Sequence record: OL964735.1
Length of the DNA: 64,000 nt
From: Escherichia phage T4
Strand: one strand, 5' to 3'
A model generated the notes under the pieces. The model made no database searches. It was not told where the DNA came from and saw only the letters and a program-made list of their open reading frames with translations. The position numbers were made by a program, and so were the translations under genes. Of the stretch, positions 11,641-51,500 are shown in pieces (positions within the stretch are counted from its first letter, which is position 1; each line of letters starts with the position of its first letter).

Positions 11641-12173
11641 TAAGCTTGGAATGCATCGTATACGTCTTTTTCTGTTTTAGATTGAGCATAATTCAACGCA
11701 TCAGCGATTTGCCATTTTTCTGCATCCTCAATATGTTTTGCATAGGTGCGTTTAACATAAGGAGAAAGTACTTTATCTACATTCGCAAAAGTCGTTCCGC
11801 CGTATTGGTGAGAAGCAACTTGCGCAGTAATTTGTGCCATAATTGCAGTAGCAACTCCAATTGATTTAGGAGTTTCAATCTGCGCATTACCAAGCTTAAA
11901 TCCGTTTTCAAGCATTCCTTTTAAATATACTAAACAGCAATTAGTAAATGGAAGAGCAGGGGAATAATCAATATCATGCACGTGAATAATTCCGCTTTCA
12001 TGCGCTTTCATAATAAAAGACGGGACCATATTTTTGGCAATGTGTTTAGACACAATACCAGCCATAAGGTCCCGTTGAGTTGGAAAAACACGAGAATCTT
12101 TATTAGCATTCTCGTTTAAAAGGTCTTTATTAGTTTTATGAATTAATCCTTCAATTTCTTTTTCAATTGTCAT
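11628..12173 (-). CDS. nrdD: Anaerobic ribonucleotide reductase NrdD, exon 1 (3' end lies slightly upstream of the in-frame stop at 11628)
   Basis: N-terminal 181-codon open frame MTIEKEIEGLIHKTNKDLL..., continued by the downstream exon. Confidence 0.85.
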   Translation of the reverse strand: MTIEKEIEGLIHKTNKDLLNENANKDSRVFPTQRDLMAGIVSKHIAKNMVPSFIMKAHESGIIHVHDIDYSPALPFTNCCLVYLKGMLENGFKLGNAQIETPKSIGVATAIMAQITAQVASHQYGGTTFANVDKVLSPYVKRTYAKHIEDAEKWQIADALNYAQSKTEKDVYDAFQAYELT

Positions 12174-13328: not shown

Positions 13329-13514
13329 CTACACGTTCTCGAAGCTCAACCAGTTCAACCGATATTGGCATTTACCATCTTGCACCCAGTCTTCTATTTC
13401 GATAGGTTTAAGATAGTCGGAAAAATCGAAATCATAGTTTTCCGAAAATGCATCATGGTCTTCAATGATTTCGCTCAGAACTGCATCAACATCTAATTTA
13501 TTTTCAATATTCAT
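13329..13514 (-). CDS. hypothetical small acidic protein
   Basis: ORF track. Confidence 0.35.
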   Translation of the reverse strand: MNIENKLDVDAVLSEIIEDHDAFSENYDFDFSDYLKPIEIEDWVQDGKCQYRLNWLSFENV

Positions 13515-13717
13515 TTTTCACACCACCAACTGCTTACTTCAAAATCGGGTTCGCCATGTTCCCAGAACCAGGGGCCGATAGGAATCCACTTACCTTCATC
13601 GGTGACGTCATATTCTTCGGATTTAGCTAACCAAATCATGTATTCATAGAGTTTATATTCCAGGTCGCCTTCTGTTCCATCGCCTAGAAAAATAATTTGT
13701 TCATTTAATTCTATCAT
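13511..13717 (-). CDS. hypothetical small acidic protein
   Basis: ORF track; overlapping stop/start with neighbours. Confidence 0.4.
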   Translation of the reverse strand: MIELNEQIIFLGDGTEGDLEYKLYEYMIWLAKSEEYDVTDEGKWIPIGPWFWEHGEPDFEVSSWWCEK

Positions 13718-29514: not shown

Positions 29515-29844
29515 TCAATTAGAAAATAAATTTATCCAAGATTGTTCTTTAATTAAAAATGGCTCAGAATCATATGCCATTAAACTTTGCGTAATTAATC
29601 CTTTAAAAGGTCCATCAATAAATTCCATGGTAAAATATGGAATTTTATTCATTAGCCGTGCATTAGGAGCAGTGCACAAAACTCTGCATCCTTTGAATAC
29701 GCCTTTTTGTAATTTGTATTGCTTGGGATAAAATTCGCTCAAAATGTTATTTTTTGCCAAAATTTCAAAATGATTCACCAATTTATTTTTAATAGTTTTT
29801 GGCGAAAAATAAAGATATTCGAAAAGCTGAGTGTCTGTCATCAT
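29515..29844 (-). CDS. hypothetical protein (vs.7 position)
   Basis: ORF track 29515..29895; internal ATG ([10 protein letters not shown]) preferred. Confidence 0.35.
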
Positions 29845-30491
29845 TGCATTCCGATTACGAAAAACTGTGGACGAGTAATACCACCAATGCAACATTTACT
29901 ATTACAGCAGTAGTGTACGGTGTCAATATGGACACTATAAATCTTATCCATATCAGGAGATTTGACAGGCTCATCAATTATATACAAAATTCGCGAAAGC
30001 TTTAAACCTCTGAACTTGCTTCCTTTATTACCAATAAAACTGCGTACAGAATCAGTAAATAAACGAAAACGTATATCATCATTAGAATAACGCGAAAATT
30101 CCTTTTTGATGTTATTTGCAGAAATTTTAGCATAAGCTGAAGTATTAGAAAGAACAATAACTGTTCCGCCATCATACAACCAATTAGCAGCAAAGTTAGT
30201 CACAGCAATTGATTTACCGGATTGACGTCCACCATCTAGTCGAAGTGTACAATACTGTTTAAGTAAGTCTTCAAATGGCGGGATATATTCGTTTTTACAA
30301 ATTTCTTCTACTCTAGCATCAGAATGGTGTGTAAAAGCATTCATCAGGGATAGATAAGGACCAGTTAAAAATGTTCTCATTTCTTCTCTATAAGTTTGGG
30401 CCATTCCGTGGCGCATGAATTGTCCATTTCTGTATTTACCCATTACCGCGCTTGGGCTCGACCTTATTACAGGTTGGCGGGAATCCCTCAT
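29841..30491 (-). CDS. P-loop NTPase-like protein (vs.8 position); start uncertain
   Basis: Walker A DGGRQSGKS and Walker B-like ILYIIDEP. Confidence 0.4.
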   Translation of the reverse strand: MRDSRQPVIRSSPSAVMGKYRNGQFMRHGMAQTYREEMRTFLTGPYLSLMNAFTHHSDARVEEICKNEYIPPFEDLLKQYCTLRLDGGRQSGKSIAVTNFAANWLYDGGTVIVLSNTSAYAKISANNIKKEFSRYSNDDIRFRLFTDSVRSFIGNKGSKFRGLKLSRILYIIDEPVKSPDMDKIYSVHIDTVHYCCNSKCCIGGITRPQFFVIGMQ

Positions 30492-30517
30492 ATAATCATG
30501 AGGTCCAGGTTGTTCCC

Positions 30518-30883
30518 TTATGCATAAATCGCCTTACCGTAGTATTTGTACCAAGTAGGACGTTGTGCAATTTTTTCATCTAAACGAGCTTGTGATATAG
30601 CAATAGAAGCTTCATGGGGAATATAATCACCACGGAATTCCTGAGGAATATCACTAATATCCTGGACTGTAGTATCCTTGATATTAAAACCACGTTTTAA
30701 ACATTCAGCTATAAGCTCAATTTGACGTTTACGTAAGAACTCGAGCTTATCGTAAAAGAATGTAACATGACCTGCGCCAAGGATAAAAGTAGGACTGATT
30801 TTAAAATCACGAACACGTTTACCGTTAGCAACATGCTTACGAACTGCACCAAAAACACGCGGCAATTCACGATATTCAGCCAT
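30518..30883 (-). CDS. denV: Endonuclease V (pyrimidine-dimer DNA glycosylase), ORF lacking the canonical N-terminal 17 codons
   Basis: 121 aa [40 protein letters not shown]... matches residues 18-138 of T4 EndoV; in-frame TAA six codons upstream of the ATG. Confidence 0.8.
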
Positions 30884-31197
30884 TAAGTGTTGGTCAGTTT
30901 ATCTTTAATTGCTTTAGCTGCTTCGATAGCCGCTTGCTGAAGGTCATCCATAGACATGCCGAACTTAGAAGCAAAGTTATCAATTTTCTTTTCGACGGCA
31001 TTCAAAGGCTTGGCCTGTTTACCTTCATTAGCGCCAGGAAGAGCGAGAATACGCTCTCTGTCAATATAAAGGCTTACAAGTTTCTTACGGTCTTTATCGG
31101 GCAAATCATGAAATGAATGGGCCTTTTTATTTACAGCGGCTTCTAATTTACCTGCGCCCACTCGCGCTTCGGCAATAAATTCTTGATATGTTTTCAT
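30883..31197 (-). CDS. ipII: Internal head protein II
   Basis: 104 aa; N-terminal capsid-targeting sequence [11 protein letters not shown] shared with ipIII; stop overlaps denV ATG (TAATG). Confidence 0.8.
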
Positions 31198-31249
31198 ATG
31201 TTTCCTTTAAATGTAAATATTTTTATTATTCTATCCTAGAATTGTGATA

Positions 31250-31278
31250 ATATATTCACAATTCTAGGAGTTGTAAAC
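31250..31278 (-). promoter_or_regulatory. Early promoter upstream of ipII
   Basis: GTTTAC -35 with AT-rich -10. Confidence 0.4.
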
Positions 31279-31312
31279 TGCTTTTATTTAAGCGTCCCAA
31301 GTATAAGCTTTA

Positions 31313-31894
31313 TTAAGAATTACCACGGGCTGCATTAGCAACGGCGTAAGCGTACTGAATATTAGCGTCTTTAAACTTACCTTTAGAGGTATCTATTTCT
31401 GCCTTAAAGCCGCCTTTAGTCATAACATCGGCAAATTCTTTACGGAAAGCCATTGCATCAAGACCTTTCCATGATGATTTATGCTTGGCAAATTCAAGAC
31501 CTGCGAAGTTGACAGCTTTAGCCAATTTATTATCAATGACCCATTTACCGGCTTTAGGCACAAACTTCGGGCCTTTCTGTTTAGAGAACAGTTTTAAATT
31601 CCAGCGGCGAAGGTCTGCATCAGCTTTAACAAATTCTGAGTCTAAGTTACTAGCAACAACATCTTCAATATGAGCAAATTTAAGTCCGTCAACTTCAATA
31701 TTTAAATCGGTACGCCAGCGAAGTCCTTCCCAAGCGAAGGCTTTAAAGTCGGAAGCCTTTGTAGCTAAGTACCGTTCAATAGGAGCTGTTTTAGGGTCAA
31801 AGCCGTTTCCTGATCGGTAGGTCCACTCATCTTTGTTAATGCCTTTGGCCTTTACTACAGAAGCTTCGGCAATAAATTCTTGATATGTTTTCAT
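31313..31894 (-). CDS. ipIII: Internal head protein III
   Basis: 193 aa; N-terminal [11 protein letters not shown] capsid-targeting sequence. Confidence 0.85.
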   Translation of the reverse strand: MKTYQEFIAEASVVKAKGINKDEWTYRSGNGFDPKTAPIERYLATKASDFKAFAWEGLRWRTDLNIEVDGLKFAHIEDVVASNLDSEFVKADADLRRWNLKLFSKQKGPKFVPKAGKWVIDNKLAKAVNFAGLEFAKHKSSWKGLDAMAFRKEFADVMTKGGFKAEIDTSKGKFKDANIQYAYAVANAARGNS

Positions 31895-31947
31895 ATGTTT
31901 CCTTTAAATTATTTTAATTAGTAATTGTCTATTCAAGTAATTGTGAA

Positions 31948-34193: not shown

Positions 34194-34749
34194 ATTTTTC
34201 TAGTAATAAATCACTTTCAAAATTAGGATTTTCCACTAATTTATCAAAAAGATCATCAACAATATTCAAGATATTTCTTTTACTAAGAATACGTTTATTT
34301 TCATGCTTCGTTTCAGAATCAACTATAAGAGTAAAGAAATATTTCTTTCCCTGAAATTTTACCGTAGTATCAATATAAAATAAATTTGACTTTTGTAAAT
34401 TACGTTTAAACCATGCGTCACTTAAACTATAAACACCGAGATAATCAAAATCGTCGTTTAAATAACAAACTGACCATTCAGGAGAAATGAAATCAGTAAA
34501 TTCAACATCAAAATCACATGTCAATGAATGAATTGATTCAATACTGTTAATAAGTATTCCAGGACGTATTAAAGACTTTTTACCTCTGGAAAATCTTCCA
34601 GAAAGACTTTCATCAGTTTCATATGAAGAACCCCAATAATAATTACGTCCTTTTGCCATATGTTTAAGAGCATTTAGTAATTGGTCTGGAACATCAACGT
34701 GTCTTTGGAACTCTTCAAACATTGAATTGAAATCACTTTGCATTTTCAT
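34141..34749 (-). CDS. hypothetical protein
   Basis: ORF track; 202 aa. Confidence 0.45.
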   Translation of the reverse strand: MKMQSDFNSMFEEFQRHVDVPDQLLNALKHMAKGRNYYWGSSYETDESLSGRFSRGKKSLIRPGILINSIESIHSLTCDFDVEFTDFISPEWSVCYLNDDFDYLGVYSLSDAWFKRNLQKSNLFYIDTTVKFQGKKYFFTLIVDSETKHENKRILSKRNILNIVDDLFDKLVENPNFESDLLLEKFVKECREYVKAITIPSK

Positions 34750-46560: not shown

Positions 46561-48543
46561 ATGGCAAATACCCCTGTAAATTATCAATTAACAAGAACAG
46601 CAAATGCTATTCCCGAGATATTCGTCGGGGGTACATTTGCTGAAATAAAACAAAACCTCATTGAATGGCTTAATGGCCAAAATGAATTTTTGGATTATGA
46701 TTTTGAAGGCTCAAGATTAAACGTTCTGTGTGACCTTTTAGCTTATAATACATTATACATTCAGCAGTTTGGTAATGCTGCTGTGTATGAAAGCTTTATG
46801 CGTACTGCTAACTTACGAAGTTCAGTTGTTCAAGCTGCACAAGATAACGGATATTTACCTACTTCAAAATCCGCTGCGCAGACCGAAATTATGTTAACAT
46901 GCACTGACGCATTGAATAGGAATTACATTACTATTCCTCGCGGAACTCGCTTTTTAGCATATGCAAAAGATACTTCTGTTAATCCATATAACTTCGTTTC
47001 TACCGAAGACGTTATTGCTATTCGTGATAAAAATAACCAATATTTTCCGCGTTTAAAATTGGCCCAGGGACGTATAGTAAGAACTGAAATCATTTATGAT
47101 AAATTAACACCTATTATCATTTATGATAAAAATATTGATAGAAACCAGGTTAAATTATACGTTGATGGAGCGGAATGGATTAACTGGACGAGAAAGTCAA
47201 TGGTTCATGCTGGTTCAACATCAACGATTTACTATATGCGTGAAACTATTGATGGAAACACTGAATTCTATTTTGGTGAAGGTGAAATTTCTGTTAATGC
47301 TTCTGAAGGAGCTTTGACCGCTAATTATATCGGAGGTCTTAAACCTACTCAGAACTCTACGATTGTTATTGAGTACATTAGTACTAATGGTGCTGACGCG
47401 AACGGAGCAGTCGGATTTTCATACGCAGATACATTAACAAATATAACTGTCATCAATATTAATGAAAATCCAAACGATGATCCAGATTTTGTTGGGGCAG
47501 ATGGAGGCGGTGATCCAGAAGATATTGAGCGTATTCGCGAATTGGGTACTATTAAACGCGAAACCCAACAACGATGCGTAACTGCGACTGACTATGATAC
47601 ATTCGTTTCAGAGAGATTTGGTTCTATTATTCAAGCTGTTCAGACTTTCACTGATTCTACTAAACCTGGGTATGCATTTATTGCTGCTAAACCTAAATCA
47701 GGATTGTATTTAACTACCGTACAGCGTGAAGATATTAAAAATTATCTCAAAGACTATAATTTAGCTCCTATTACGCCATCAATTATTTCTCCTAATTATC
47801 TTTTTATTAAGACTAATTTAAAAGTCACATATGCTTTAAATAAACTGCAAGAATCCGAACAGTGGCTTGAAGGTCAAATAATTGATAAAATTGATCGCTA
47901 TTATACCGAAGATGTAGAAATTTTTAACTCGTCTTTCGCTAAATCTAAGATGTTGACATATGTAGATGATGCAGATCATTCTGTCATTGGTTCATCAGCG
48001 ACTATTCAAATGGTTCGTGAAGTACAAAACTTCTATAAAACGCCTGAAGCGGGTATTAAATACAATAATCAAATAAAAGATCGTTCTATGGAATCTAATA
48101 CGTTTTCATTTAATTCTGGACGAAAGGTTGTAAATCCTGATACTGGTTTAGAAGAAGATGTATTATATGACGTTCGTATAGTATCAACAGACCGAGATTC
48201 TAAAGGAATTGGTAAAGTTATTATTGGTCCATTTGCTTCTGGCGATGTTACAGAAAATGAAAACATTCAGCCGTATACAGGCAACGATTTTAACAAATTA
48301 GCAAATTCTGATGGACGCGACAAATACTATGTTATCGGTGAAATAAATTATCCAGCTGATGTGATTTATTGGAATATCGCTAAAATTAATTTAACATCTG
48401 AAAAATTTGAAGTTCAGACCATTGAATTATATTCTGACCCAACCGATGATGTTATCTTTACTCGCGATGGTTCACTGATTGTATTTGAAAATGACTTACG
48501 TCCACAATACTTAACTATCGATTTGGAGCCTATATCACAATGA
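46561..48543 (+). CDS. 6: Baseplate wedge protein gp6
   Basis: 660 aa; T4 gp6 length and order. Confidence 0.9.
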   Translation: MANTPVNYQLTRTANAIPEIFVGGTFAEIKQNLIEWLNGQNEFLDYDFEGSRLNVLCDLLAYNTLYIQQFGNAAVYESFMRTANLRSSVVQAAQDNGYLPTSKSAAQTEIMLTCTDALNRNYITIPRGTRFLAYAKDTSVNPYNFVSTEDVIAIRDKNNQYFPRLKLAQGRIVRTEIIYDKLTPIIIYDKNIDRNQVKLYVDGAEWINWTRKSMVHAGSTSTIYYMRETIDGNTEFYFGEGEISVNASEGALTANYIGGLKPTQNSTIVIEYISTNGADANGAVGFSYADTLTNITVININENPNDDPDFVGADGGGDPEDIERIRELGTIKRETQQRCVTATDYDTFVSERFGSIIQAVQTFTDSTKPGYAFIAAKPKSGLYLTTVQREDIKNYLKDYNLAPITPSIISPNYLFIKTNLKVTYALNKLQESEQWLEGQIIDKIDRYYTEDVEIFNSSFAKSKMLTYVDDADHSVIGSSATIQMVREVQNFYKTPEAGIKYNNQIKDRSMESNTFSFNSGRKVVNPDTGLEEDVLYDVRIVSTDRDSKGIGKVIIGPFASGDVTENENIQPYTGNDFNKLANSDGRDKYYVIGEINYPADVIYWNIAKINLTSEKFEVQTIELYSDPTDDVIFTRDGSLIVFENDLRPQYLTIDLEPISQ

Positions 48544-51500
48544 CAGTAAAAGCACCTTCAGTCACTAGTCTCAGAATTTCCAAGTTATCCGCAAATCAGG
48601 TGCAAGTACGCTGGGATGACGTTGGTGCTAATTTCTACAAAATAGTAGAAATCGCTGAGACAAAAACAAACTCGGGGGAAAATCTCCCGAGTAATCAATA
48701 TCGTTGGATTAATTTAGGATATACAGCAAATAATAGTTTCTTTTTTGATGATGCTGATCCATTAACAACATACATTATTAGAGTAGCCACAGCTGCGCAA
48801 GATTTTGAGCAGTCTGATTGGATTTATACCGAAGAGTTTGAAACTTTTGCTACAAATGCTTATACATTTCAAAACATGATTGAAATGCAATTAGCCAATA
48901 AATTCATTCAGGAAAAATTTACTCTTAATAATTCTGATTATGTTAATTTTAATAATGATACTATAATGGCTGCATTGATGAATGAATCATTCCAATTCAG
49001 CCCATCGTATGTTGATGTTTCATCAATAAGTAATTTTATTATTGGTGAAAATGAGTATCATGAAATACAAGGTTCTATTCAGCAAGTATGTAAGGATATT
49101 AACCGAGTTTATTTGATGGAATCAGAAGGAATTCTATATCTTTTTGAGCGCTATCAACCTGTAGTTAAAGTATCCAATGATAAAGGACAAACCTGGAAAG
49201 CTGTAAAGCTCTTCAATGACCGTGTAGGATATCCTTTATCTAAGACAGTATATTACCAATCTGCGAACACAACATACGTTCTAGGATACGACAAGATTTT
49301 CTATGGCCGCAAATCTACTGATGTTAGATGGTCAGCCGATGATGTCAGATTTAGTTCTCAGGATATAACATTTGCTAAACTTGGCGACCAATTACATCTA
49401 GGATTTGATGTAGAAATTTTTGCCACTTACGCGACTTTACCAGCGAATGTATACCGCATTGCAGAAGCTATTACTTGCACCGATGATTACATTTACGTTG
49501 TCGCCAGAGACAAAGTTAGATACATAAAAACGAGTAATGCACCTATAGATTCTGATCCATTATCTCCAACATATTCGGAAAGACTTTTTGAACCTGATAC
49601 CATGACTATAACCGGAAATCCTAAAGCAGTATGCTATAAAATGGATTCTATCTGTGATAAAGTTTTTGCTCTTATTATTGGTGAAGTTGAAACATTAAAT
49701 GCTAATCCTAGAACATCAAAAATAATTGATTCCGCTGATAAAGGAATATATGTTTTAAATCATGACGAAAAAACATGGAAAAGAGTTTTTGGTAATACCG
49801 AAGAAGAAAGAAGACGTATTCAACCCGGATATGCGAATATGTCAACTGACGGTAAATTAGTTTCTCTGTCTTCGAGTAATTTTAAATTTTTAAGTGATAA
49901 TGTTGTTAATGACCCTGAAACTGCAGCAAAATATCAGTTAATTGGCGCTGTTAAATATGAATTTCCTCGTGAATGGTTAGCTGATAAGCATTATCATATG
50001 ATGGCATTTATAGCGGATGAAACATCTGATTGGGAGACTTTTACTCCTCAACCAATGAAATACTACGCAGAACCATTCTTTAACTGGTCTAAAAAATCTA
50101 ACACACGTTGTTGGATAAACAACTCTGATAGAGCTGTGGTAGTTTATGCTGATTTAAAATACACTAAAGTTATAGAAAATATTCCGGAAACATCACCAGA
50201 TAGATTAGTTCATGAATACTGGGATGATGGTGATTGCACTATAGTAATGCCAAATGTCAAATTCACTGGATTTAAAAAATACGCATCAGGAATGCTTTTC
50301 TATAAAGCCTCCGGTGAAATAATTTCTTACTATGATTTTAACTATCGTGTGAGAGATACAGTAGAAATTATTTGGAAGCCAACTGAAGTATTTTTAAAAG
50401 CATTTTTACAAAACCAAGAGCATGAGACTCCTTGGTCACCAGAAGAAGAGCGTGGATTAGCTGACCCTGATTTAAGACCATTAATTGGCACAATGATGCC
50501 TGATTCTTATTTGTTACAGGATTCGAATTTTGAGGCATTTTGCGAAGCATATATTCAGTATCTTTCTGATGGATATGGAACTCAATACAATAATTTACGA
50601 AATTTAATTCGTAACCAATATCCACGAGAAGAGCACGCATGGGAATATTTGTGGTCAGAGATATATAAAAGAAACATTTATTTAAATGCTGATAAACGCG
50701 ATGCTGTTGCGAGATTCTTTGAATCACGTAGCTATGATTTTTATTCTACTAAAGGAATTGAAGCATCATACAAGTTTCTTTTTAAAGTTCTTTATAATGA
50801 AGAAGTTGAAATTGAAATTGAATCTGGGGCTGGTACTGAATATGATATAATCGTTCAATCTGATTCTTTGACTGAAGATTTAGTAGGACAAACGATTTAT
50901 ACGGCAACAGGAAGATGTAATGTTACTTATATAGAAAGAAGCTATTCTAATGGTAAATTGCAATGGACCGTAACTATTCATAATCTTTTGGGACGATTAA
51001 TTGCTGGTCAAGAAGTTAAAGCAGAAAGACTCCCTAGTTTTGAAGGCGAAATTATTCGTGGGGTTAAAGGAAAGGATTTGCTTCAAAACAATATAGACTA
51101 TATTAATAGAAGTAGATCATACTATGTAATGAAAATTAAATCCAATTTACCTTCTTCCCGCTGGAAATCTGACGTTATTCGTTTTGTTCATCCAGTAGGA
51201 TTTGGATTTATAGCAATTACCCTTTTAACAATGTTTATTAATGTTGGTTTAACTCTTAAACATACAGAGACTATAATTAATAAATACAAAAACTATAAAT
51301 GGGATTCTGGATTGCCTACTGAATATGCCGACAGAATAGCTAAATTAACTCCAACCGGTGAAATTGAGCATGATTCAGTAACAGGCGAAGCAATTTATGA
51401 GCCTGGCCCAATGGCTGGTGTAAAATATCCTCTTCCTGATGACTATAATGCTGAAAATAATAATTCAATATTTCAAGGTCAATTGCCGTCTGAACGACGT

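Follow-up and report, generated by a model that had tools for sequence, protein, structure and literature searches.

The 64-kb stretch of phage T4 DNA analysed here (64,000 nucleotides, hereafter the window) carries, beside the internal protein gene ipII, a denV gene whose first available start codon is that of Met18 of endonuclease V, and the question raised by this locus is how a T4 phage came to lose the catalytic N-terminus of its repair enzyme. The original prediction, made from the letters alone, proposed either a natural N-terminal deletion or fusion, or a gene remodelled relative to T4. The reading frames it described are borne out. The denV frame encodes 121 amino acids identical to residues 18-138, and is closed six codons 5' of its ATG by an in-frame TAA (30901-30899), with the sense sequence reading TAA ACT GAC CAA CAC TTA ATG. 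The DNA upstream encodes, in another frame, the ipII C-terminus as stated, in a 104-amino acid frame (ipII') that ends in ...KDKLTNT, and its TAA stop overlaps the Met18 ATG in the sequence TAATG.

The claimed difference from T4 was likewise upheld on alignment with the reference, as the DNA is not identical. Alignment with NC_000866 and OZ209023 places a single clean gap of 100 bp between window positions 30898 and 30897. Using window positions 30400-31400 as megablast query, 100 extra bases were found at the gap in 14/14 T4 records of at least 99% identity, and in twelve of these, which are near-identical complete genomes (T4, T4T, RB55 and RB59), the 1,001 query bases cover 1,101 bases in two pieces. 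The window and T4T (HM137666) run in the same direction, base 1 corresponding approximately to T4T position 34200 and the absent 100 bp to T4T positions 65299-65398, where T4 reads TAACAGTTTACATCTCCTGTAGGTATGATACTATAGACCTATCAACTACAGGAGAACACTAAAATGACTCGTATCAACCTTACTTTAGTATCTGAATTGG. The lost sequence includes the ipII stop codon, the entire 60-bp ipII-denV spacer and 37 nt from the start of denV, comprising codons 1-12 and one base of codon 13. The wild-type ipII gene (303 nt in NC_000866; 100 amino acids) and denV lie in one frame, and the loss of 100 bp shifts this frame by one base, with the result that ipII reads four denV-derived codons (LTNT) before a stop, while denV opens only at Met18. 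The leftover denV codons 13-17 are now read as this IpII tail and its stop, and the upstream TAA bars their translation in the denV frame. The coordinates of these and the other features discussed below are collected in Table 1.

Table 1. Features of the window that bear on the origin of the denV deletion (positions in window coordinates).
Feature	Position	Strand	Description	Basis
Deletion junction (scar), ipII-denV	30897..30898	minus	Sense ...GATAAA/CTGACC...	Alignment; BLAST offsets vs T4T
denV remnant ORF	30518..30883	minus	121 aa; endonuclease V residues 18-138	Reading-frame check; PDB identity; Pfam coverage
Leftover denV codons 13 (partial)-17	30884..30897	minus	..CT GAC CAA CAC TTA	
ipII' gene	30883..31197	minus	Wild-type 100 aa + 4-aa C-terminal LTNT	
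Second scar, gene 49.2	13359..13360	minus	Exact 100 bp (T4T 47559-47658)	
Third scar, gene 49.3	13615..13625	minus	102 bp, in-frame	
Lineage marker, gene 7	48639..48644	plus	6-nt hairpin loop inverted, TATTTT to AAAATA	

The missing N-terminal coding sequence has no second copy anywhere in the 64-kb window, nor is the peptide MTRINLTLVSELADQHL encoded elsewhere in it; the sole tblastn trace of the N-terminus is a 'DQHL' at 30895-30884, beside the junction. The possibility of an N-terminal exon moved to another part of the window was rejected on this basis. The fusion part of the original proposal also falls: with 100 bp gone the frame is shifted, IpII ends after four extra residues, and an IpII-DenV fusion protein was accordingly rejected. 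An exact look-up of the 104-amino acid IpII' protein returned nothing on record.

The denV remnant is identical (100%) to residues 18-138 of the endonuclease V structures 2END and 1ENI (numbered 17-137 in 1VAS and 2FCC, whose chains lack the Met); 2FCC is reportedly the trapped endonuclease V intermediate of Golan et al. in 2006. The remnant matches the pyrimidine dimer DNA glycosylase family of Pfam, PF03013 (E = 3.4e-8), over profile positions 21-77 of 81. The wild-type DenV covers positions 1-77, so that positions 1-20 are unmatched in the remnant, in agreement with the earlier claim of a missing catalytic N-terminus. The equivalents of the DNA-binding residues Arg22 and Arg26 and of the catalytic Glu23 are retained, as had been stated; in the remnant (MAEYRELPR...) Arg22, Glu23 and Arg26 have the numbers 5, 6 and 9. 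Residues 1-17, including Thr2 and Arg3, are absent. In endonuclease V the free alpha-amino group of Thr2 is the nucleophile that attacks the dimer at C1' of its 5' pyrimidine, giving a Schiff-base intermediate, and the N-terminal segment packs against the helices beside Glu23. This enzymology of Thr2 is reportedly owed to Schrock and Lloyd in 1991 and 1993, Dodson et al. in 1993 and Vassylyev et al. in 1995. On these grounds the loss of Thr2 is expected to abolish catalysis and, as the remnant has neither the Thr2 alpha-amino group nor Arg3, glycosylase/AP-lyase activity should be absent. The remnant thus shows the PF03013 homology and lacks the N-terminal Thr2 nucleophile and Arg3, and annotating it as a functional family member would be wrong.

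The deletion also appears to take away every dedicated denV expression signal, namely a putative promoter, a hairpin and the ribosome-binding site. The only promoter-like matches 5' of denV sit in the 60-bp spacer of the wild type, the better of them being TTTACA-N16-TACTAT with a TG extension; these are consensus hits, with no enrichment over shuffled sequence. A hairpin in the spacer (-18 kcal/mol, z = -3.0) carries the GGAG ribosome-binding site in its 3' arm. Transcripts from the putative TTTACA-N16-TACTAT promoter would start within the hairpin that sequesters the denV GGAG. In T4 gene e, read-through transcripts are translationally silent and a proximal promoter yields a translatable mRNA, an arrangement that the wild-type denV spacer would resemble. 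Local RNA folding at the scar does not stand out (z = -0.8), and any residual DenV product would need re-initiation at TAATG on ipII read-through transcripts. Neither the loss of the ipII stop codon and of all denV expression signals, nor the two further deletions described below, had been part of the original prediction.

Since the sole open denV frame, starting at Met18, is left without a promoter or Shine-Dalgarno sequence of its own, the allele is predicted to be null. The phage would be expected to show the classical UV-sensitive 'v' phenotype, in line with the UV sensitivity of the original prediction, and its growth should be normal, which would fit the survival of the allele through serial passage. 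IpII, in turn, is expected to keep its whole wild-type sequence, including the N-terminal propeptide, and to gain only the C-terminal LTNT; these four residues are probably harmless, and are unlikely to affect the packaging of IpII into heads.

The missing 100 bp are centred to the base, as 40 + 20 + 40 bp, on an SpCas9 protospacer, AGTGTTCTCCTGTAGTTGAT with the PAM AGG, which lies on the plus strand of the genome (T4T 65339-65358), over the Shine-Dalgarno sequence and 4 nt 5' of the denV ATG. When the entire window was compared with T4T, NC_000866 and MT984581, two sister scars came to light, 17 kb from that in denV and absent from all T4 records compared. The deletion in gene 49.2, a frameshift that reduces the product from 106 to 61 amino acids, is likewise centred as 40 + 20 + 40 bp on a protospacer, GCTGTAAATGAATCTCGCTC with the PAM AGG. 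Only 6.3% of 100-bp windows in this T4 region are centred on an NGG protospacer, and two out of two such sites would therefore arise by chance with a probability of approximately 0.004. Two protospacers abut the ends of the denV deletion, which had prompted a rule whereby a deletion begins at the first base of the protospacer; this rule fails at 49.2 and was dropped. The 40 + 20 + 40 rule fits all exact 100-bp deletions examined.

A loss of this size is the intended product of the 'cassette-100' of CRISPR/Cas9-based iterative genome reduction (CiPGr), which has been used on T7, T4, seszw and selz; the cassette comprises a 20-nt SpCas9 spacer and two 50-bp homology arms, and was built to delete 100 bp (Yuan, Shi, Jiang & Ma, Nucleic Acids Res 2022; PMC9825161). 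The denV deletion holds a 20-nt target with NGG, is of the designed size, and has a clean junction, with flanks that match the parent and no microhomology, which is also lacking at the 49.2 deletion. The third scar, in gene 49.3, shortens the product from 102 to 68 amino acids (an exact look-up of the 68-amino acid gp49.3' returned nothing on record) and equals the 100-bp deletion predicted for GGCGAGAACACAGTTGTAAT with the PAM CGG, minus two further nucleotides at the arm junction. The loss of these two nucleotides fits either an oligo-synthesis error or microhomology repair. Cassettes free of errors made up only about 42% of those cloned (PMC9825161).

The strongest of the competing explanations, although improbable, is a spontaneous CRISPR escape, in which a Cas9 cut was sealed by end-joining or minihomology recombination without use of the designed template; in that case, too, the deletion would have been made in the laboratory, in the same experiment. 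T4 has been reported to undergo undesigned losses and CRISPR-escape mutations (PMC9825161), and the 102-bp deletion in 49.3, with its short TTTA/GCT overlap, could have arisen in this way. Escape would, however, leave ragged ends defined by homology, while the denV deletion is exactly 100 bp, symmetric on the protospacer and without microhomology. The short direct repeats of a microhomology escape are absent at denV and 49.2, and a weak TTTA is present only at 49.3. The same geometry recurs, moreover, at 49.2 and in the gene 49.3 allele of two public sequencing runs (SRR22215995 and SRR22215996). These runs carry the same 49.2 allele as the window, but their 49.3 allele differs, being an exact 100-bp deletion centred on ACAACTGTGTTCTCGCCATA with the PAM CGG, which indicates that gene 49.3 was struck independently by two guides.

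It is very unlikely that the scar arose in sequencing or assembly, or by in-silico editing, with no physical phage carrying it. The round 100-bp gap does resemble an artificial edit, and the source record is absent from the phage collection searched, but the round size is explained by the published cassette-100 design. Furthermore, an exact-protein look-up of the 121-amino acid ORF found one public contig, the independently assembled Logan contig SRR22215997_2359, which carries an identical denV junction and matches the window at 1628/1628 bases. The artefact was rejected on the evidence of this contig. The contig SRR22215997_2359 ends exactly 30 nt past the deletion junction, as would be expected of a k = 31 de Bruijn graph with wild-type and deleted alleles both among the reads; if the assembly did use k = 31, SRR22215997 may represent a mixed phage population rather than a pure clone.

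The lineage of the window can be traced through a marker in the essential baseplate gene 7. In other T4 genomes the sequence reads TTCTAC-TATTTT-GTAGAA, compared to TTCTAC-AAAATA-GTAGAA in the window, with a change of gp7 residues Y33F34 to K33I34. This exact reverse-complement inversion of a loop between 6-bp inverted arms is the signature of a quasi-palindrome template switch, and no Cas9 protospacer overlaps it. Of 605 matching phage records, only MZ375356 (T4_583L) and OL964745 (T4_7t1) also have the inversion, at 100% identity; being restricted to CiPGr clones, it marks that laboratory stock. MZ375356 is the 'Mutant Escherichia phage T4 clone T4_583L' of 151,790 bp, and both the clone name and the genome size are given by Yuan et al. 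2022 (PMC9825161). A second marker of the CiPGr stock is a C-to-A single nucleotide polymorphism (SNP) in the nrdD region (window position 11927), which is absent from three reference T4 genomes and present in MZ375356 and in a contig of SRR22215995, beside the nrdG-nrdD junction. That contig carries a 3.3-kb nrdG-nrdD deletion, the 110-nt junction of which is identical in MZ375356, and 'nrdG-D' is listed among the large undesigned losses in T4 (PMC9825161). The window thus shares both the gene 7 inversion and the SNP with published CiPGr clones. No paper was found to cite the SRR accession numbers, and the case for SRR22215995-7 belonging to the CiPGr project is circumstantial.

Several smaller differences were observed alongside these markers. 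A private +1 insertion at window position 31909 (AAAT-T-ATTTT), 15 nt 5' of the ATG of the minus-strand gene ipIII, is absent from NC_000866, MT984581, T4T, OZ209023 and the CiPGr clone OL964745. It falls in the seed region of TTACTAATTAAAATATTTAA, 6 nt from an AGG PAM, and is compatible with a CRISPR-escape mutation; the SNP at 11927 likewise falls in the seed of an AGG-PAM protospacer. By a rough, uncomputed estimate a large share of T4 positions lie within some protospacer, and the seed placement of the two changes is not statistically meaningful and was not counted as evidence. Approximately sixty small differences separate the window from the old reference NC_000866, most of which look like reference-specific errors or strain differences. 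The vs.8 gene (29841-30491, minus strand), for example, encodes 216 amino acids in the window, T4T, MT984581 and OZ209023, and 219 in NC_000866, which has a 9-nt insertion.

A natural N-terminal deletion variant among wild T4-like phages is the least credible explanation and was rejected as extremely unlikely: denV is dispensable for growth and some T-even phages, classically T2, have no v-gene activity, but none of 756 phage records matching the region (0/756) gives an unbroken match across the junction, the junction 33-mer is without an exact match in the viral, metagenome and genome contig collections, both flanks match laboratory T4 at 100% identity, the deletion is an exact, protospacer-centred 100 bp with two sister scars in the same window, and the private gene 7 marker is common only to engineered clones. 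Of the natural deletion originally proposed, the deletion stands, while its natural origin is contradicted by the protospacer-centred 100 bp and the CiPGr lineage.

Considering that size, protospacer centring, clean junction and strain lineage all fit, the denV scar is very probably a designed CiPGr cassette-100 CRISPR/Cas9 knockout, with a predicted null effect. A cassette-100 plasmid would supply an SpCas9 guide against AGTGTTCTCCTGTAGTTGAT (AGG) together with a 2x50-bp repair template, the arms of which would be expected to end ...AATTAAAGATAAA / CTGACCAACACTT..., with one 50-bp arm ending ...GCAATTAAAGATAAA and the other starting CTGACCAACACTTAATGG.... Homologous repair would remove exactly 100 bp centred on the protospacer, and the edited phage, its target gone, would escape further cutting. 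That this spacer and arm pair belongs to the cassette set of the CiPGr authors is suggested circumstantially. The cassette-100 clone T4_100_t3 has a genome only 0.3% smaller and a higher infection efficiency (PMC9825161). A loss of 0.3% is approximately that of five 100-bp scars, and the window could derive from T4_100_t3 or a sibling. There is a small chance that the remnant is made, by re-initiation at TAATG from the abundant late ipII message, as a dead dimer-binding protein, or that the loss of denV, or of the hairpin and promoter, helps the infection efficiency of T4_100_t3; were either the case, the phenotype of the scar would go beyond simple UV sensitivity.

T4 has been known to grow without denV since the 1960s. 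The scar agrees with this, and its biological weight is small: it represents a designed disruption of a non-essential repair gene by a published method. There is a risk to annotation, as pipelines would call a 121-amino acid 'endonuclease V' and a 104-amino acid IpII, neither of which is natural. The window, which carries at least three such scars, is best regarded as an engineered genome rather than as evidence of natural T4 diversity.

Classical denV alleles, obtained by selection after mutagenesis, are point or nonsense mutations with a UV-sensitive phenotype and no endonuclease V activity. The allele of the window resembles these v/denV mutants (e.g. denV1) in that denV, a non-essential gene, is inactivated, the phage is viable and a UV-sensitive phenotype is predicted; it differs in being a designed deletion of promoter and N-terminus that also alters the ipII stop. 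Compared with endonuclease V (T4-Pdg; PF03013; 2END, 1VAS, 2FCC), the remnant shares residues 18-138, including Arg22, Glu23 and Arg26, but without residues 1-17 (Thr2, Arg3) it is a gene fragment. The CiPGr spacers are said to have 'spanned the entire gene', and denV occurs in the main text only within an undesigned large vs.3-denV loss (PMC9825161). The window differs from this account in that the main text names neither its allele nor its clone, the guide targets the denV 5' untranslated region instead of coding sequence, and one of its three scars is 102 bp. With the CiPGr cassette-100 it nevertheless shares the exact protospacer-centred loss of 100 bp, the clean homology-directed junction and the presence of several scars per genome, and with T4_583L and T4_7t1 a common stock, as reflected in the gene 7 marker and the SNP in the nrdD region.
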